NCBI GenBank assembly: GCA_963842445.1
Contig: CAWJHF010000009.1
Span: 89,086 to 153,085 of the forward strand
DNA length: 64,000 nucleotides
From: an uncultured Verrucomicrobiae bacterium
Lineage (GTDB): Bacteria > Verrucomicrobiota > Verrucomicrobiia > Limisphaerales > UBA11358
Direction of reading: 5' to 3'
Shown here: in pieces, positions 4,571-35,627 of the stretch
Numbering within the stretch: the first letter of the stretch is position 1
How the letters are laid out: every line of letters begins with the position of its first letter
Notes under the pieces: generated by a model
Database searches by the model: none
The model's input: the letters and a program-made list of their open reading frames with translations, nothing else
What the model was told of the DNA's origin: nothing
Position numbers and translations under genes: made by a program

Positions 4571-4596
4571 GCGTGCAGAAAATTTGCAAAACAATT

Positions 4597-4623
4597 TAAC
4601 GCAGAGGCGCAAAGACGCAGAGA
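4597..4623. repeat. Short intergenic repeat (family D, aacgcagaggcgcaaagacgcagag)
   Basis: Same motif forms an inverted pair at 28599-28682. Confidence 0.7.
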
Positions 4624-4629
4624 TGAATT

Positions 4630-4691
4630 TGTAGGAAACGACGTAAGGAGTCTCCAATTTCAAATCAGAGCCTCGTCACCTCGGCTCCTAC
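4630..4691. repeat. Palindromic element, family A (24-nt imperfect terminal inverted repeats GTAGGAGNCGANGTNANGAGNCTC)
   Basis: Left arm gtaggaaacgacgtaaggagtctc, right arm gagcctcgtcacctcggctcctac. Other copies at 18881, 27662 and 29481. Confidence 0.8.
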
Positions 4692-5377
4692 GAACTTTCC
4701 CTCGGTCTTTTGACCACGACATCAATTCCCGCCTTGTTTTTGGCAATCATGTTCGCGGGCAGGATGCCGCGCCAGAAGACATTCGGGTAAATCACCGAAC
4801 CGCGCCCGACGATGCTGCCGGGGTTCAGCACGGCGTTGCAGCCGATTTCCACGCCGTCACCGAGCAGCGCGCCAAACTTCCGCAAGCCGGTGTCAAACGG
4901 CACGCCGTCCTTCTCCACCTCGATGTTGCCGGGAAACAGTTTGTAGTTGGAAATTTTCACGCCCGCGCCGAGGTGCGCCTTGTGGCCAAGAATCGAATCG
5001 CCGACGTAATTGTAGTGCGGCGCGACGGCGTGGTTGAACAGCAGCGAATTTTTGATTTCGGTCGAGTTGCCCACGACGCAATCGTCGCCGATGATGACAT
5101 TTTCGCGGAGATAGGCGTTGTGGCGGATCTGGCAGTTCCTGCCGATGATGGCCGGGCCTTTGATCATCACGCCATCCTCGACTACCGTGCCCTCGCCGAT
5201 GAAAACTTTTTCGCCGATGTAAGCGCGGCCGTCGCATTTATTTCGCAGTTCCGGTTTCAGGTTCGCGGCGAGGTAGCCTTCAATTTTCTTGAGGGCGTCC
5301 CAAGCGAATTTGCAACCGTCGAAAATCGCGGCGTGTCCGGTCTGGTTGAGGTCAAACAAGTCGGCTGGTTTGAACAT
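4688..5377 (-). CDS. Left-handed beta-helix (hexapeptide-repeat) transferase, GlmU C-terminal-like
   Basis: 229 aa made of consecutive [LIV]-G-x-x-x-x hexapeptide turns (IGRNCQI, IGDDCVV, LGAGVKI, IGCNAVL, VGRGSVI). Confidence 0.7.
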   Translation of the reverse strand: MFKPADLFDLNQTGHAAIFDGCKFAWDALKKIEGYLAANLKPELRNKCDGRAYIGEKVFIGEGTVVEDGVMIKGPAIIGRNCQIRHNAYLRENVIIGDDCVVGNSTEIKNSLLFNHAVAPHYNYVGDSILGHKAHLGAGVKISNYKLFPGNIEVEKDGVPFDTGLRKFGALLGDGVEIGCNAVLNPGSIVGRGSVIYPNVFWRGILPANMIAKNKAGIDVVVKRPRESS

Positions 5378-8020: not shown

Positions 8021-8094
8021 TGGAGCGGGCGAAGGGAATCGAACCCTCGTGTGAAGCTTGGAAGGCTTCCGTTCTACCATTGAACTACGCCCGC
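8021..8094 (-). tRNA. tRNA-Gly (anticodon UCC), CCA encoded
   Basis: Reverse complement GCGGGCGTAGTTCAATGGTAGAACGGAAGCCTTCCAAGCTTCACACGAGGGTTCGATTCCCTTCGCCCGCTCCA folds as a cloverleaf: 7-bp acceptor stem, anticodon stem GAAGC/GCTTC, loop CTTCCAA, TTCGATT T-loop. Confidence 0.93.
8057..8094. repeat. att-type direct repeat (5' half of tRNA-Gly, within the intact gene)
   Basis: ttggaaggcttccgttctaccattgaactacgcccgc is identical to 13695-13732. Confidence 0.85.
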
Positions 8095-18880: not shown

Positions 18881-18966
18881 TGTAGGAGACGAGGTAACGA
18901 GTCTCAAATATTTTGGACTCCTCCTGGTTTCCGACTAAGAATGAGCCTCCTCACGTCGGCTCCTAC
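18881..18966. repeat. Palindromic element, family A (long-spacer copy)
   Basis: gtaggagacgaggtaacgagtctc ... gactcctcctggtttccgac ... gagcctcctcacgtcggctcctac. Confidence 0.8.
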
Positions 18967-19037: not shown

Positions 19038-20184
19038 ATGTTCGAAACGGTTAAAACGGAAATTACGACGGCCTCGGAAAAACTTGCGCATCTGCGGAGG
19101 TTTCTTTGACGTGCCCGCCGCGCAAAAACGCCTCGGCGAACTCAATTCGCTCATGGCCGCCGACAATTTCTGGAACAACCGTGAAAAGGCGCAGACGCTG
19201 ATTGACGAGGCCAACTCCCTCCGCAACAAAACCGAGCCGTTGCTCCAGGCGGAAAAACATCTGGAGGATTTCCGCGTGATGCTCGAACTCGGCGAGGCCG
19301 AACCGCCCGAAGCGCAGCCGAAAGTCCAGCAGGAATTGGAACGCGACCTCGCGAAGTTTTTGCAGGATCTCGAAGCACTGGAGTTGAAGGTTTTCCTCAG
19401 CGGCCCGCACGACCGCAAGAACTGCATCCTGAGCATCAACGCCGGGGCCGGCGGCACCGAGGCGCAGGATTGGGCGGAAATGCTGTCGCGCATGTATCAG
19501 CGCTGGGCCGAATCGCGCGACTGGGACGTGGAAGTGACTGATGCGCTGCCCGGCGAAGGCGCGGGCCTCAAGAGCGTTACCATGCTGCTTCAGGGTGAAA
19601 ACGCCTACGGCTTCGCCAAGGCCGAACGCGGCGTCCACCGGCTCGTGCGCATCTCGCCGTTCGACGCCAACAAGCGCCGCCACACCAGCTTCGCCAGCGT
19701 GGACGTGATTGCGGAAATCGAGGAAAACGATTCGGAACTTGTGATCCCGCCGAACGAATTTGAAGTGGACACGTTCCGTTCCGGCGGCAAGGGCGGCCAG
19801 AACGTGAACAAGGTCGAGACCGCCGTGCGCATCACGCACATCCCGACTGGCCTGGTCGTCGCATCGCAAACGCAGCGATCACAGCATCAGAACCGCGCCA
19901 CGGCGATGAAACTGTTGCTGTCACGGATTTATGCGCAACGCCAGGACGCGGCAAAGGCCGAGATGGAGCGGTTTTACGGCGAGAAGGGCAGCATCTCGTG
20001 GGGCAACCAGATTCGCAGCTACGTCTTCCAGCCATATCGTATGGTGAAAGATTTGCGCACCGGCATCGAAACCAGCAATGTGCAAGCCGTGATGGACGGC
20101 GATTTGGATCAATTCGTGAATGGCTGGCTCCGCGCCGGCTGCCCGACCAAACGGATGCAGGGAGTGAAAGATGAAGGAGAATAA
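19038..20184 (+). CDS. prfB: Peptide chain release factor 2, requiring programmed +1 frameshift at 19104-19110
   Basis: Frame 0 MFETVKTEITTASEKLAHLRRFL ends at CTT TGA C. The +1 frame continues DVPAAQKRLGELN... and includes SGGKGGQNVNKVETAVR (GGQ) and the SPF motif (ISPFD). Confidence 0.93.
19095..19110 (+). promoter_or_regulatory. prfB autoregulatory +1 frameshift site
   Basis: cggaggtttCTTTGAC: an internal Shine-Dalgarno-like GGAGG lies 3 nt before the slippery CTT and the in-frame TGA followed by C. Confidence 0.9.
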
Positions 20185-20188
20185 AACG

Positions 20189-20246
20189 AGTCAGTAGTCA
20201 GTAGTTCGTAGCTAGTCGCAATCACCGCGCACTACTGACTACTGAT
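20189..20246. repeat. Inverted repeat (agtcagtagtcagtag ... ctactgactactga), likely prfB terminator hairpin
   Basis: Lies directly downstream of the prfB stop. Confidence 0.55.
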
Positions 20247-20262
20247 TGTTGACTGTCAACCG

Positions 20263-21102
20263 ATGAACATTCTCGACACCATTGTTGAGCAAAAGAAGCG
20301 CGAGGTCGCACAATTGCCACCGCGACTCGTCGCCACCGGGGATTTGCGTGATGCGCTGCTGGAACGCGGCGAGCGGCACGACTTTCTGGCGGCGTTGCGC
20401 AAGCCGCGTCACGGTGATATCGCGCTGATTGCCGAGGTCAAAAAGGCCTCGCCATCAGCGGGCGTGATTTGCATGGACTTCGACCCGGTGCACATCGCGA
20501 AGGAATACGAAGCGGCGGGTGCGAGTTGCCTTTCGGTTTTGACGGACGAAAAATTTTTCCAAGGTTCGCTCGATCACCTCCGGCAGATTCGCGCGGCGGT
20601 TAAGCTGCCGTTGTTGCGAAAGGATTTCATCATTGACGAGCGGCAGATTCTCGAGGCCATCGAATGGGGCGCGGACGCCATCCTGCTTATCATCGCCATT
20701 TTGACCGACGCGCAATTGAAAAAATTCCATTCGCTGGCGACCGAGGCCGGTCTGGCTGTACTGGTCGAAGTTCACGATGAAGCGGAACTGGACCGTGCAA
20801 TGAAAATTGGCGCACCCCTCATCGGTGTGAACAACCGCAATTTGAAAAATTTCAAGGTGGATCTGGCAACGACGGAAAAACTGGCGGCAGAATTATACCG
20901 TAGGACGGGTGTCTCGCCTGTCTCTAAAATTAAAAATGGAGACAGGCAGGATGCCTGTCCTACGCTTGTTGCTGAAAGCGGCATCCACACGCGCGCGGAC
21001 GTGGAGCGTCTGAGAAAATGCGGCGCCAACGTAATTTTGGTCGGCGAATCTTTGATGCGCGGCGGTGATATTCAATCCAAAATCCGCGAATTGATCAGGT
21101 AG
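20263..21102 (+). CDS. trpC: Indole-3-glycerol phosphate synthase, carrying an in-frame family B element
   Basis: IAEVKKASPS, LSVLTDEKFFQGS, LLRKDFIIDE and GVNNRNL motifs. Inserted peptide RRTGVSPVSKIKNGDRQDACPT is encoded by 20900-20963. Confidence 0.92.
   Translation: MNILDTIVEQKKREVAQLPPRLVATGDLRDALLERGERHDFLAALRKPRHGDIALIAEVKKASPSAGVICMDFDPVHIAKEYEAAGASCLSVLTDEKFFQGSLDHLRQIRAAVKLPLLRKDFIIDERQILEAIEWGADAILLIIAILTDAQLKKFHSLATEAGLAVLVEVHDEAELDRAMKIGAPLIGVNNRNLKNFKVDLATTEKLAAELYRRTGVSPVSKIKNGDRQDACPTLVAESGIHTRADVERLRKCGANVILVGESLMRGGDIQSKIRELIR
20900..20963. repeat. Palindromic element, family B (GTAGGACRGGYRTCYYGCCTGTCTC arms) inside trpC
   Basis: gtaggacgggtgtctcgcctgtctc - spacer - gagacaggcaggatgcctgtcctac. 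Homologous copy at 32446-32518. Confidence 0.85.
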
Positions 21103-27162: not shown

Positions 27163-28536
27163 TCAACCGCCCAGCGAACCCGGATCGCCCACGTCGCCCT
27201 TGTTGAAATCCACGTAGGCCTCGGTCAAATCGGCGGCGTAAATTACGGTGCTTGCCTTGCCGAGATTCAGGTTGATGTGCAAATCGAATTCCTTCGGCAC
27301 CACGGCGGCGCAAAGTTCCCTGAATGTCGCCTTTGTCGGCTGGCCGCGCTTTAAACTCCACAAGATCCTTTTGCCGCCGGGAGCGCTGTAACCGATATCC
27401 ACCTTCTCCTCGACGATTTTGGCCGGCGAATAACCGAGCGCGTCAATAATGCGGCCCCAATTCGGGTCGCCGCCGTGCCAGCTCGTTTTCACGAGCGGAC
27501 TGTTCGCCACCGCCCGCGCGGCGGCATCGGCATCGGCAACTGTCTTTGCACCGTTCACACGCACTGTCACAATGCGATGCACGCCTTCGCCATCGCGCAC
27601 AATCATCTTCGCCAGTTCCAGGCAGACGTGATTCAGCGCGGCTTGAAAAACCTTGAAGTTTTGTAGGAGCCGACGTGAGGAGGCTCTGACTTTTTTTGAC
27701 GAAGTGAGACTCGTTACCTCGTCTCCTACAATTATTGGATTGCCCGCCAGCCCATTCGCCAGCACCAGCACCGTGTCGTTCGTGCTCATGTCGCCGTCCA
27801 CAGTGATGCGATTGAAGCTCTGCGCGACGGCTTCCTCCAGAGCAGCCTGCAAAGTTTTCGCATCAATCGCCGCGTCGATGGTGATGAAACAAAGCATCGT
27901 CGCGTGCAACACCGCCGGCCTTGCTCCCGTGGCGCTCATGCCAGGCTGAATCATGCCTGCGCCTTTGCAAATGCCGCCGATGCGGACGGTCTTGCCGTCC
28001 AGCTTGAACTCGACCGCGATTTGCTTGGGCCGCGTGTCGCTCGTCATGATGGCCTCGGCGGCATGAGCGGCGCTCTCCGGCGAATTGTCGAGTAGCGTCA
28101 CGGCCTCTTTGATACCGGCCCGGACATTGGCCATCGGCATCGTAACCCCGATGCGGCCGGTGGAACCGACCAGAACATGTTCCGCCGGTATGTGCAGATG
28201 TTTGGCGAGCAATGCAGTCATTTCACGCGCGTCCTGCAAGCCTTGTTTTCCCGTGCAGGCATTGGCGTTGCCGGAATTGACGACGATGGCCTGGGCGGTT
28301 CCCTTTTTCACGCGTTCAACGCAAACTTTCACCGGCGCGGCGCAGACCTGATTGGTCGTGAACATGCCCGCAACCGTCGCCGGAACCTCAGACACAATCA
28401 GCGCGAGATCGCGCTTTTGCCCCTTGTTCGAGCCTTTGCCGGTGCCGAGGCGTTTGATATCGCAAAACACGCCGCCGGCCAGAAAACCTTTTGGCGCGAC
28501 GATGGAACCTAGGATTTTTTTGAACCTGATTTTCAT
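27163..28536 (-). CDS. argJ: Bifunctional ornithine acetyltransferase / N-acetylglutamate synthase, carrying an in-frame family A element
   Basis: KGFLAGGVFCDIK, self-cleavage site HATMLCFITID, and MSTNDTV. Inserted peptide VGDEVTSLTSSKKVRASSRRLLQ is encoded by 27662-27730. Confidence 0.9.
   Translation of the reverse strand: MKIRFKKILGSIVAPKGFLAGGVFCDIKRLGTGKGSNKGQKRDLALIVSEVPATVAGMFTTNQVCAAPVKVCVERVKKGTAQAIVVNSGNANACTGKQGLQDAREMTALLAKHLHIPAEHVLVGSTGRIGVTMPMANVRAGIKEAVTLLDNSPESAAHAAEAIMTSDTRPKQIAVEFKLDGKTVRIGGICKGAGMIQPGMSATGARPAVLHATMLCFITIDAAIDAKTLQAALEEAVAQSFNRITVDGDMSTNDTVLVLANGLAGNPIIVGDEVTSLTSSKKVRASSRRLLQNFKVFQAALNHVCLELAKMIVRDGEGVHRIVTVRVNGAKTVADADAAARAVANSPLVKTSWHGGDPNWGRIIDALGYSPAKIVEEKVDIGYSAPGGKRILWSLKRGQPTKATFRELCAAVVPKEFDLHINLNLGKASTVIYAADLTEAYVDFNKGDVGDPGSLGG
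27662..27730. repeat. Palindromic element, family A, inside argJ
   Basis: gtaggagccgacgtgaggaggctc - spacer - gagactcgttacctcgtctcctac. Confidence 0.85.
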
Positions 28537-28598
28537 TTTGCGGAATTGAATCTGCCAATTTTGCATGTCAACGCGAATCATTTTTTTACGATTAAAAT

Positions 28599-31796: not shown

Positions 31797-34700
31797 TTGA
31801 ACCGTGTGAACACAAAATTGAACAGGGCCGCCGAATTGGAGCGTTTGCTGCGCGAGCGCATCGTGATCCTTGATGGCGCGATGGGCACGACGATTCAGCA
31901 GCGCAAGTTGACGGAAGCCGATTTCCGCGGCGCGCGGTTTGCGGATTGGCGCGGCAAGGAACTCAAAGGCTGCAACGACCTGCTGAACGTCACGCGGCCG
32001 GACATCATCGAGGACATTCATCGCGAATACCTCGAAGCCGGTGCGGACATCATCGAGACGAACACGTTTAATTCACAGGCCGTTTCGCTGGCCGATTATG
32101 GCCTGGAATCGCTCGCCTATGAACTGTCCAAGGCCGGCGCGGAATGCGCCCGGCGCGCGGCGGACACGGCGGAACAAACGCAGCCGGGCCGCGTCTGTTT
32201 TGTGGCCGGAGCCATCGGGCCGACGACAAAGACATCGTCCATTTCGACCGACGTGAACAATCCGGCGGCGCGCGGCTGCACTTACGATGAACTGGTCGCA
32301 GCGTATTCGGAACAGGTCCGCGGGTTGCTCGATGGCGGCGCGGATTTGCTGCTGGTGGAAACGATTTTTGACACTCTGAACGCAAAGGCGGCATTTTTTG
32401 CGATCCAGAACATATTTGATGAGCGCGGGATTGAGCCGCTTCAAAGCAGGACAGGCGTCGCGCCTGTCTCTGACTTTTCGGAAATAAAAAATGGAGACAG
32501 GCGGGATGCCTGTCCTACGAAAGTTGTTCCCATTCTCGCCTCCGTCACGTTCATCCAGGCGGGCAGCAATCGCGGTGTGACCGGCCAGACCGTCGAGGCG
32601 TTTTGGAATTCCATTTCGCACGTTCCGCTGTTGAGCGTCGGCATGAACTGCGCGCTCGGACCGAAGGAACTGCGTCCGCTCATCGAAGAGCTTTCCGGCA
32701 TCGCGCCGATCTACGTCAGCGCATATCCGAATGCCGGCCTGCCGAATCCACTTTTGCCGACGGGTTTTCCCGAAACACCGGAAACCCTCGCGCCGCAACT
32801 GCGCGAGTGGGCGCAAAACGGCTGGCTCAACATCGTCGGCGGTTGCTGCGGCACCACGCCGGCGCACATCAAGGCGATTGCCGAAGCAGTCCGCGGAATT
32901 CCGCCGCGCAAGGTGCCGGTGGTTGAACCGTATTTACGTTTGAGCGGACTCGACGCGCTGACGGTCCGTCCGAATTCCAATTTTCTGAACATCGGCGAGC
33001 GTACGAACGTCGCCGGCTCGCCGAAATTCGCGCAGCTCATCAAGGCCGGCGATTACGAAGCCGCGCTCGCCGTCGCACGCCAGCAGGTCGAGAACGGCGC
33101 GCAGGTCATTGACGTCTGCATGGACGAAGGGATGATTGACGGCGTCGCCGCGATGACGCGTTTCCTGAACCTCGTCGCGTCCGAACCGGACATCTGCAAG
33201 GTGCCAGTGATGGTGGACTCGTCGAAATGGGAGGTCATCGAAGCCGGCCTGAAATGCCTCCAAGGCAAGGGCATCGTGAATTCGATTTCGCTCAAGGAAG
33301 GCGAGGAAAAATTCCTGCGCCAGGCGAAACTGGTCCGCCGGTACGGCGCGGCAGTCGTCGTGATGGCGTTCGACGAACGCGGCCAAGCTGATTCGTTCGA
33401 ACGCAGGATCGCAGTCTGCCAACGCGCCTACGATTTGCTTGTCGGGCAGGTTGGCTTCCCATCGCAGGACATCATTTTCGATCCGAACGTGCTGACTGTC
33501 GGCACCGGCATGGAGGAACACGCGAATTATGCCGTGGATTTCATCCGGGCGACGAAATGGATCAAGGAAAACCTGCCGCACGCGAAAGTCAGCGGCGGCA
33601 TCAGCAACATTTCATTTTCGTTTCGCGGCAACAACACCGTGCGCGAGGCGATGCACTCGGCGTTTCTTTATCACGCCATCCAGGCGGGTCTCGATATGGG
33701 GATTGTTAATGCCGGCCAGCTTGCCGTCTATGACGAAGTGCCGAAGGACCTTTTGGAATTGGTCGAGGATGTTTTGCGCAACCGCCGTCCGGACGCAACC
33801 GAACGGCTGATCAAATTTGCCGAGTCCGTGAAGCAGAAAGGCAAGGCCGAGGCCGTCGAGGACGAATGGCGCAAGGGCACTGTCGAGGAACGGCTCACGC
33901 ACGCGCTCGTCAAAGGCATCGTGGATTTTATTGACCAGGATATCGAGGAAGCACGGCAGAAATTTGCGCGGCCCTTGCAAGTCATCGAAGGCCCGCTCAT
34001 GGCCGGCATGAATGTCGTCGGCGATTTGTTCGGTTCAGGCAAAATGTTCCTGCCACAGGTGGTGAAGTCCGCCCGGGTGATGAAAAAAGCCGTGGCGTAT
34101 CTGTTGCCGTACATGGAAGCGGAGAAAAAGGCCGCCGGTGGCGTGCATAAAAACGCCGGGAAAATCCTCGTGGCCACTGTCAAAGGTGACGTGCATGACA
34201 TTGGCAAAAACATCGTTGGCGTCGTGCTCGCCTGCAATAATTACGAAGTCATTGACCTCGGCGTGATGGTGCCGTGCGAAAAAATCCTCCAGACCGCGCG
34301 GGAACAAAAGGTGGACATCATCGGTTTGAGCGGGCTGATCACGCCGTCGCTCGACGAGATGACGCACGTCGCGCACGAGCTGGAGCGCGAAGGATGCAGG
34401 CTGCCGTTGCTCATCGGCGGCGCGACGACGAGCAAGGCCCATACGGCGGTGAAGATTGCGCCCGGCTACAGCCAGCCGGTCGTTCACGTGCTCGATGCCA
34501 GCCGCGCCGTGCCGGTCGTCAGCAATTTAATCAGCGCGGAAAACAGGCCCGCGTTCGCGCAGGAAATCCGCGTAGAATACGACCGCATCCGCTCACAGCA
34601 CGGTGGCAGAACGGCAAAACTGGTTTCCATCGAAGAAGCCCGCGCCCGTGCGCCAAAGCTGGGCTTCGACAATCTGCCCAAACCGGAGTTCACTGGCATC

Positions 34701-35627
34701 CGCGCGTTGTCGTCCGATGTCACCACGCTCAACACCCAGCACTCCGCGCGCATCACGCTTTCGGAGCTGTTGCCTTTCATTGACTGGTCGCCGTTCTTCC
34801 ACACCTGGGAATTGCGCGGCCGTTATCCCGCGATTCTGAATCACGAAAAGCATGGCGAAGAGGCGCGCAAACTTTTTGCCGACGCGCAGAAGCTGCTCGA
34901 AGAGATGGTCAGCAGGAAGCTGATTCAGCCGCGGGGTGTTTATGGATTATTCCCGGCGAACCGGGCTGGCGATGACGTGGAACTCTACACCGATGAATCG
35001 CGGGCAAAGGTTTTGACAACCTTTCATTTCCTGCGTCAACAGATCGCCAAGGACGATGGCACGCCGAACTGGTGTCTGGCGGATTTTGTTGCCCCGAGAC
35101 CCGATTATATCGGCGCATTCGCCGTCACGACAGGCCACGGGCTTGACGAAGTGGTCAAAAAGTTCAAGGCCGACCACGATGACTACAATGCCATCATGGC
35201 CGAGGCGCTGGCGGACCGGCTGGCCGAGGCCTTCGCGGAATATTTGCACAAGCGCGTCCGGGAGGAATGGGGTTACGGCAAAACGGAAAGGCTGACGACC
35301 GAGGATCTCATCGCCGAAAAGTATCGCGGCATCCGCCCGGCGGCGGGTTATCCCGCGTGCCCCGATCACACTGAAAAGCAAATTCTTTGGAAGCTTCTCG
35401 ACGTTGAAAAAAATGCCGGCATCAAACTGACGGAAAGCTTCGCCATGTGGCCGGGGAGTTCCGTGAGCGGACTCTATTTCGCGCACCCGGAATCAAAGTA
35501 TTTCGCCGTCGGCAAACTTGGCCGCGACCAGCTTCTGGATTACCACCGGCGCAAAGGAATGACCTTGCCAGAGGTGGAAAGATGGTTGGGGCCGTATTTG
35601 AATTACGACCCGGTTAAAAACTCCTGA
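31797..35627 (+). CDS. metH: Cobalamin-dependent methionine synthase, carrying an in-frame family B element
   Basis: 1276 aa with Hcy-binding, pterin-binding, B12-binding ([11 protein letters not shown]) and AdoMet-activation domains. TTG 31797 or GTG 31806 start. Inserted peptide [25 protein letters not shown]. Confidence 0.95.
32446..32518. repeat. Palindromic element, family B, inside metH
   Basis: aggacaggcgtcgcgcctgtctc - spacer - gagacaggcgggatgcctgtcctac. Same reading frame as the trpC copy. Confidence 0.85.

Follow-up and report, generated by a model that had tools for sequence, protein, structure and literature searches.

In the window, by which we mean the whole 64,000-nucleotide stretch of DNA analysed, the gene trpC, encoding indole-3-glycerol-phosphate synthase (IGPS), contains a 64-bp palindromic element (Table 1). 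The element is composed of GTAGGACGGGTGTCTCGCCTGTCTC, a 14-nt A/T-rich spacer and GAGACAGGCAGGATGCCTGTCCTAC, in that order, exactly as quoted in the original prediction. The host ORF comprises 279 codons and is intact, with a Pfam IGPS match that runs end to end at 296 bits, and the frame reads through the element (...LAAELYRRTGVSPVSKIKNGDRQDACPTLVAESGI) with zero stops and zero frameshifts, as had likewise been predicted. The encoded peptide, R-TGVSPVSKIKNGDRQDACPT, accounts for about 18-21 added residues, and its tryptic digest in silico gives the peptides TGVSPVSK and QDACPTLVAESGIHTR. Judging from the intact frame, the insert is probably translated, and it is presumably neutral for TrpC.

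A repeat search identifies the two arms of the element as 26-nt sequences with 81% complementarity, and the chance expectation in shuffled sequence is below one for either arm pattern; the palindrome is not a chance repeat. The 72-nt stretch that contains it is predicted to fold at -47.1 kcal/mol as RNA (z = -10.8, with 0 of 200 shuffles as stable) and at -21.1 kcal/mol as DNA. Each arm is also predicted to fold alone, with a stem of 7-8 bp and a loop of 3-5 nt (z = -2.5 to -4.9). The hairpin gacaggc-N5-gcctgtc, which had been proposed for both arms, is perfect in the right arm (GACAGGC-N5-GCCTGTC) and degenerate in the left, where 5 of the 8 pairs of the scored 8-bp stem are Watson-Crick; in a 7-bp stem read by eye, two of the left-arm mismatches are G-T and would allow G-U wobble in RNA. 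The element begins with GTAG at 20900 and ends with CTAC at 20960-20963, and it matched no Rfam family.

An unpaired GTAG tag with an adjoining short stem-loop places the element among REPs, for which PMC3733652 (Di Nocera et al. 2013) sets out an unpaired GTAG (or GYRG) tag, a stem of 5-13 bp and a loop of 2-20 nt. Since GTAG with a short hairpin is the REP signature, and two inverted REPs around a spacer constitute the REPIN or REP-dimer architecture (Bertels & Rainey 2011, PMC3116915; PMC3733652), the trpC element, with its inverted REPs, short spacer and capacity to form one long hairpin, has the layout of a REPIN. We refer to it as a REP doublet and to its sequence family as family A.

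Table 1. Positions of the doublets, their host genes and other features in the window, and of example ORFs in related loci (locus name before the colon)
Feature	Position	Strand	Basis
Family-A REP doublet (REPIN-like) inside trpC	20900..20963	+	sequence, repeat search, folding
Left REP of trpC doublet	20900-20924		
Spacer of trpC doublet	20925-20938		
Right REP of trpC doublet	20939-20963		
trpC (IGPS), intact ORF, doublet in modelled α6-β7 loop	20263..21102	+	ORF, Pfam, alignment, model
Family-A doublet in metH, in frame, 73 bp, with the mutated head GCAG	32446..32518	+	
metH (B12-dependent methionine synthase), 1276-codon ORF, host of second copy	31797..35627	+	Pfam
Family-B doublet, 67 bp, in frame in argJ ORF	27663..27729	-	
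argJ ORF	27163..28581	-	
Family-B doublet, 85 bp, intergenic, ~70 bp upstream of prfB start	18882..18966	+	
Family-B doublet, 61 bp, at 3' end of the ORF in the next row	4631..4691	+	
ORF ending in the 61-bp family-B doublet	4688..5377	-	
prfB	19038-20184		
prfB frameshift site CTT TGA C	~19104-19110		
Hairpin in prfB-trpC spacer	20191-20245		
Third repeat type, first region	4596-4691		
Third repeat type, second region	28597-28683		
Extra residues in ArgJ	~27900-27960	-	
tRNA-Gly(TCC)	8021-8094	-	Rfam, ARAGORN
DnaE frame with doublet and REP-RAYT-REP block	L097:564-5063		
Example nested-RAYT ORF	L203:863-4243		
Example nested-RAYT ORF	L212:818-3898		
Example nested-RAYT ORF	L218:1595-4825		
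Example nested-RAYT ORF	L228:3-3473		
Example nested-RAYT ORF	L263:1526-5437		

Further doublets in the window

The window contains two family-A and three family-B copies. The second family-A copy, in metH, is near-identical to the trpC element and is read in the same frame, encoding a 24-residue peptide; its tags are GCAG and CTAC. Within the Hcy-binding barrel, it occupies the loop preceding the strand VPILASVTF, where about 34 residues align opposite 4 of human MetH, and the Pfam match of MetH is full length despite the insert. Family B has the architecture of family A with other stems (GTAGGAGAC...GTCTC / GAGCC...GGCTCCTAC). Its copy in argJ, with arms GTAGGAGCC...GGCTC / GAGAC...GTCTCCTAC, encodes ...IVGDEVTSLTSSKKVRASSRRLLQ... 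and places about 26 residues opposite 8 in the alignment with 1vra; the ArgJ ORF is intact, with a full-length Pfam match. By these alignments, the metH and argJ copies are insertions as well. The remaining two family-B copies lie upstream of prfB and at the end of a minus-strand ORF, the TAG stop of which is supplied by the GTAG head of the doublet. A generic scan of the window for GYRG hairpins was too noisy for use.

Elements that are small, palindromic and multi-copy, with a variable internal spacer, could also be MITEs, which here would mean that a DDE-type insertion sequence gave rise by deletion to a derivative with terminal inverted repeats. We regard this origin as highly improbable: reading the sequence by eye, no target-site duplication is seen beside the copies at 20900, 32446, 27663, 18882 and 4631, the arms are self-folding GTAG hairpins and not plain terminal inverted repeats, and the sole transposase type found adjoining such hairpins is Y1/HUH (see below).

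The window has several other features. A third repeat type (TTTAACGCAGAGGCGC..GACGCAGAG) occurs as a 30-nt-arm palindrome in the spacer downstream of argJ and as a single arm beside the family-B doublet at 4631, where it makes a small BIME-like cluster between two minus-strand genes. The spacer between prfB and trpC contains an 18-nt-arm hairpin of GTAG-containing repeats (CAGTAGTCAGTAG...CTACTGACTACTG), which has no repeat elsewhere in the window; it may represent either a terminator or a further type of REP. The prfB gene has a programmed +1 frameshift site preceded by GGAGG, an ordinary and well-known feature. In comparison with solved ornithine acetyltransferases (aligned to 1vz6), ArgJ has about 11 extra residues (...GMIQPGMSATGARPAVLHATML) just before the ATML autoprocessing motif, with no obvious hairpin in the corresponding DNA. 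The N-terminal region of MetH is 70-76% identical to Nitrospira MetH (comparison with loci L285-L330), as close as to many Verrucomicrobiota, which may hint at horizontal transfer of metH. The tRNA-Gly gene is the sole Rfam or ARAGORN match in the window.

The trpC and metH loops in relatives

Alignments place the trpC segment outside the native IGPS fold. Specifically, the solved structures 3tsm and 6y88 have gaps opposite most of it, and the distance from VNNR to ESGI is 53 residues in TrpC of the window versus 35 in species-level relatives, many of which have a short loop such as ...LAKKIGDEQILVAESGI. Orthologs that lack the repeat thus have a short, unrelated loop and no peptide homologous to the insert. 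By this comparison, the segment is an inserted repeat element foreign to native TrpC, in line with the insertion in a loop that had been proposed. An AlphaFold model of TrpC, of moderate quality (mean pLDDT 64, pTM 0.67) and used for the order of secondary structure only, predicts a helix at 201-215 and a strand at 234-238, joined by a coil in which residues 218-230 have pLDDT below 50. Because this helix-coil-strand order places the coil there, the insert is assigned to the loop from α6 to β7, consistent with the surface loop that had been suggested. As is established for TIM barrels, the catalytic βα loops of a (βα)8 barrel are on one face and the αβ loops on the other.

Of the 120 TrpC clusters nearest to that of the window (76-100% identity), essentially all have an insert at the trpC site (one was unparsed), indicating that the insertion is not recent in the source genome. 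In these clusters the peptide RTG[VS/VA/VP/FQ]PVS follows the genome-wide variants of the REP hairpin loop, and spacers differ in length or are missing. Across 80 species-level loci (L121-L200), the trpC loop is empty, holds family A in the frame seen in the window, or holds a related REP with a GTGGCAC stem. Other loci in the same set have a family-A-like doublet in another frame (VGQASCL...GKMPALP), another hairpin doublet (L167), or an unrelated, non-GTAG palindrome (EDGGWKMAKTS.PSSILNSPSS) or its deletion remnants. On a TrpC tree calculated with the loop masked, and of low resolution, these states are interleaved, which argues for repeated gain, partial deletion and replacement at the site.

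The metH loop, surveyed in L282-L361, is empty in very similar Nitrospira-type MetH, whereas in verrucomicrobial relatives four or more distinct elements occupy it, of which several are GTAG doublets; one palindrome in this set encodes FRRDDTGSRGTRPSE... As judged from these surveys, the two α-to-β loops are insertion hotspots, and the element that fills them differs from species to species. Among the trpC and metH relatives, no empty site is near enough to give boundaries or a target signature at nucleotide resolution; with both loops diverged or differently filled, no clean junction can be read.

In six species with a full trpC doublet, third codon positions are identical at a fraction of 0.80 in the arms versus 0.60 in the rest of trpC, and 3 of 2000 random 16-codon sets reach 0.80. 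Codon positions 1+2 are identical at 0.84 in the arms versus 0.89 in the rest of the gene. Constraint that is flat across codon positions points to nucleotide-level constraint or homogenisation, rather than to a selected peptide. Compensatory changes point both ways between the long inter-arm stem and hairpins within each arm: full-length copies favour inter-arm pairing (8/8), whereas in the spacer-less L125 and L127 pairing within each arm fits 8/8 versus 6/8 for inter-arm pairing.

The retention of the insert in essentially all 120 closest homologue clusters, the conservation of arm nucleotides beyond synonymous expectation and the very stable predicted hairpin would suit a segment with a function for the host, either as an mRNA hairpin (-47 kcal/mol) that pauses ribosomes or stabilises the transcript, or as a peptide whose conserved Cys serves TrpC. 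We consider such a function improbable, given that the same DNA occurs in unrelated proteins and in intergenic DNA, and that the loops of sister lineages are empty or filled quite differently at the same site. In addition, the lower conservation of codon positions 1+2 in the arms than in the rest of trpC speaks against a selected peptide, and homogenisation among copies explains the conservation of the arms equally well.

For a REPIN-type mobile element, we propose that an ancestor of a Limisphaerales-type verrucomicrobial clade gained a copy in the α6-β7 loop of trpC, on the barrel face opposite catalysis, where a stop-free insert that keeps the frame would be tolerated. The insert would be translated as an extra surface loop, probably disordered. 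The copy would then have been inherited, remodelled by spacer loss and swaps of hairpin-loop variants, and replaced or deleted in some lineages, while its sequence was held at the level of nucleotides and not of the peptide, by hairpin constraint or by homogenisation against genomic copies.

Distribution of family A and its link to RAYT

When species-representative genomes were scanned with the element's core as query, the search revealed at least about 45 family-A copies among the matches listed, in many MAGs; together with the metH copy, these establish that the element is not unique to trpC, a point on which the original prediction had partly hinged. The hosts of the listed copies are nearly all Verrucomicrobiota (Limisphaerales/Pedosphaera-type), with a few Planctomycetota MAGs. 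The consensus of the listed copies is GTAGGACAGGC-N5-GCCTGTCTC, a variable A/T-rich spacer and GAGACAGGC-N5-GCCTGTCCTAC, with the head GTAGGAC... and the recurrent loop variants GTCGC, ATCCT, TTCCA and ATCTT. The core pattern, GCCTGTCTC-N-GAGACAGGC, is loose and also caught terminator-like hairpins and matches at contig ends with the motif CTGTCTCTTATACACATCT, which we take to be sequencing-adapter-like; these matches were set aside. Several MAG records labelled Bifidobacterium, Bifidobacteriaceae or Akkermansia muciniphila hold Limisphaerales-type trpC, RAYT or REP sequences (L141, L146, L151, L155, L188, L193, L204, L208 and L216); these labels are probably mislabels or binning errors. An extrapolation to hundreds of copies per genome was dropped, because the trpC flanks of 66 other genomes, 178 kb in total, contain zero REPs of the trpC-element class.

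The fetched loci contain 41 usable family-A doublets. When a long open frame is defined as one that continues without a stop for 60 codons or more to either side of the element, 31 of the 41 (76%) lie in one, compared with 72% of random 70-nt windows from the same loci and 5.5% for shuffled DNA under the same criterion. By eye, about 3 of the 31 in-frame cases look like spurious arginine-rich frames. A proportion of 76% versus 72% indicates no depletion of family A from coding sequence, contrary to classical REPs. For ten recognisable host ORFs picked from the set, Pfam domains extend across the insert in all ten (PurM, GlnS, LeuS, IspG, a class-III aminotransferase, IleS, XseA, PheS, a thymidine-phosphorylase-type enzyme and a peptidase U32). 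Family-A copies use every combination of frames except the one in which the GTAG head is read as a TAG stop. The lengths from GTAG to CTAC fall in all three residue classes modulo 3, implying that the inserted unit is not simply GTAG..CTAC; a rule of length 1 modulo 3, suggested by three copies in the window, fails across the family.

The transposase linked to these hairpins is found in related genomes. In L097, a segment matches Pfam Y1_Tnp at 34.9 bits (cut-off 23), and its best NCBIfam match is REP_Tyr_transpos (REP-associated tyrosine transposase) at 73.7 bits, below the cut-off of 80. A REP doublet interrupts this Y1 segment, and family-A REPs bracket it. For the 22 closest of 80 relatives of the L097 protein, on a recount, GT[AG]G..CAGGC-N5-GCCTG hairpins lie within ~130 bp on both sides at 17 of the 22 transposase loci and on one side at 2 more. 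At L217, the head on either flank is exactly GTAGGACAGGC. The HUH and catalytic-Tyr motifs are intact and conserved in the RAYT relatives. A RAYT gene flanked by the same REPs is thus a REPIN trait seen in related genomes only, and it is such a RAYT that presumably moved the trpC copy. The degenerate left arm in trpC and the GCAG head in metH suggest that both copies may no longer be mobilisable.

The original prediction had compared the element with Rickettsia palindromic elements (RPEs). The likeness in behaviour stands, as both insert in frame in housekeeping genes; the family does not, since the element belongs with RAYT-linked GTAG REPs and REPINs. A stricter version of the comparison, in which an RPE-like element spreads by some undescribed route that needs no transposase and the co-occurrence with RAYT is coincidental, would fit the in-frame inserts in housekeeping enzymes and the 64-kb window, in which no RAYT gene is found. 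We judge it quite improbable, because a GTAG head with a hairpin is the architecture that RAYT recognises and the same hairpins flank RAYT on both sides at 17 of the 22 related loci. Moreover, the short RPEs covered in PMC3733652 (RPE-4 and RPE-6) are in the CGTC-tagged class and have no dedicated transposase, whereas the trpC element has GTAG.

Taken together, we consider it likely that the trpC element consists of two inverted GTAG-headed REP hairpins in REPIN architecture, with the history proposed above; elements of this kind are non-autonomous and depend on RAYT (Y1/HUH) for mobilisation in trans.

Nested RAYT genes and comparison with known systems

In a set of 80 loci (L201-L280), the Y1 domain is nested at 43, in a larger frame that continues without a stop for 100 codons or more to either side; a further 14 loci are ambiguous, and at 23 the RAYT is free-standing. 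The nested RAYT domains are bracketed by REP-encoded peptides, in frame in large host ORFs (examples in Table 1). Pfam host domains are found on both sides of the nested Y1 in DnaE (between finger and HhH), DinG-like helicases, PriA, a UDPGP-like protein, DUF1156 proteins, a CCA-adding/poly(A) polymerase, CarB, a GH38 glycosidase and HsdR. The DnaE frame of L097 contains a plain family-A doublet and a REP-RAYT-REP block, the latter interrupted by a further REP doublet. In L084, DnaE has a REP doublet alone, just before IRFGLAAIKGVGE, the site at which L097 and L201 have REP-RAYT-REP. Nesting in DnaE, PriA or DinG might be thought to bring the transposase to replication forks, but hosts such as CarB, GH38 and the CCA-adding enzyme weaken this idea.

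Close relatives of this RAYT in a large protein database are mostly RayT proteins of 190-340 residues, a few of which have foreign N-terminal domains, suggesting that nesting is common but not universal. In the literature searched, we found no published description of RAYT genes nested in frame in host genes. The arrangement resembles that of inteins, which are also selfish in-frame coding elements in large, often essential genes such as DnaE, where host selection shields the frame. It differs in that the nested RAYT is a Y1 transposase bracketed by REP-encoded peptides, in which neither protein-splicing motifs nor evidence of excision was seen.

By definition REPs are extragenic, and it is commonly assumed that genes exclude them. 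The original prediction was not aware of such in-frame elements as a textbook feature of this lineage; PMC3733652 describes GTAG-tagged REPs in the PVC superphylum, including families GTAG-17 to -20 of Opitutus terrae, with about 70 intragenic cases, a catalogue of in-frame dimers (for GTAG-19, e.g. GTGVPPV...HGRDARAT) and GTAG heads that can provide TAG stop codons. As documented there, the O. terrae GTAG REPs share with the trpC family the phylum and, in GTAG-19, a GTAG/GTGG head and a ...CAGGC-GTCCC-GCCTG... core; the GTAG-19 peptide GTGVPPV compares with RTGV[SAP]PVS in the trpC family. Also shared with the O. terrae elements are the dimers with a variable spacer, the 20-30 residues in frame in housekeeping genes, the supply of a TAG stop to a neighbouring gene, and REPs that flank RAYT genes. 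The trpC family differs in its order (Limisphaerales-type MAGs) and in its stem (GGACAGGC). It goes beyond this precedent in being undepleted in coding sequence and in the recolonisation of the trpC and metH loops by different families; neither trpC nor metH is among the O. terrae intragenic cases in the part of the list examined.

With the REPIN-RAYT systems of Pseudomonas and E. coli (Bertels & Rainey 2011, PMC3116915; Nunvar 2010, PMC2817692; Ton-Hoang 2012, PMC3333891), the elements share inverted REPs around a spacer, a long hairpin, GTAG, a Y1/HUH gene flanked by REPs, and long persistence in a lineage. Classical REPINs are overwhelmingly extragenic, whereas family-A elements are mostly intragenic and, to judge from the frame, translated; the classical RAYT is free-standing, whereas the related RAYT here is frequently nested in frame, and the mobility of the elements here is putative. 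As for RPEs, PMC3733652 likewise presents palindromes in frame in genes for functional proteins, to which they add a peptide loop. By description, RPEs are set apart by the Rickettsia lineage and by the CGTC tag of RPE-4/-6, whereas the elements here are GTAG-tagged, RAYT-associated, 61-85 bp long and found in Verrucomicrobiota. Their lengths also differ from those of RPE-1 type elements, which are ~100-150 bp.

Intragenic GTAG REPs in Verrucomicrobiota are already known from PMC3733652, and the trpC element is best filed with the GTAG-REP/REPIN class. What looks new is that the family is undepleted in coding sequence, that the same enzyme loops are used repeatedly and that transposase genes are nested; in the literature searched, we found no papers on such elements in Limisphaerales or Pedosphaera. 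We tentatively suggest, as a serious possibility that stops short of being probable, that the whole REPIN-RAYT system of Limisphaerales-type Verrucomicrobiota and some neighbours has shifted into coding sequence, with doublets undepleted, loops recolonised and RAYT often an internal domain of a host protein.

Under the REPIN assignment, oddities of 20-30 residues in verrucomicrobial housekeeping enzymes would be translated mobile-DNA hairpins, not lineage-specific functional motifs, and such inserts would show which loops of TIM barrels and other folds are permissive. A lineage with undepleted REPs and reusable loop landing pads would offer a natural experiment on insertion tolerance and on the persistence of REPIN populations. 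If the shift into coding sequence is true, selection on the host gene would shield the nested transposase frame from decay by nonsense and frameshift mutation, giving intein-like persistence without splicing. If the nested RAYT is both real and undescribed, it would add a new means by which domesticated transposases ensure that they are maintained.
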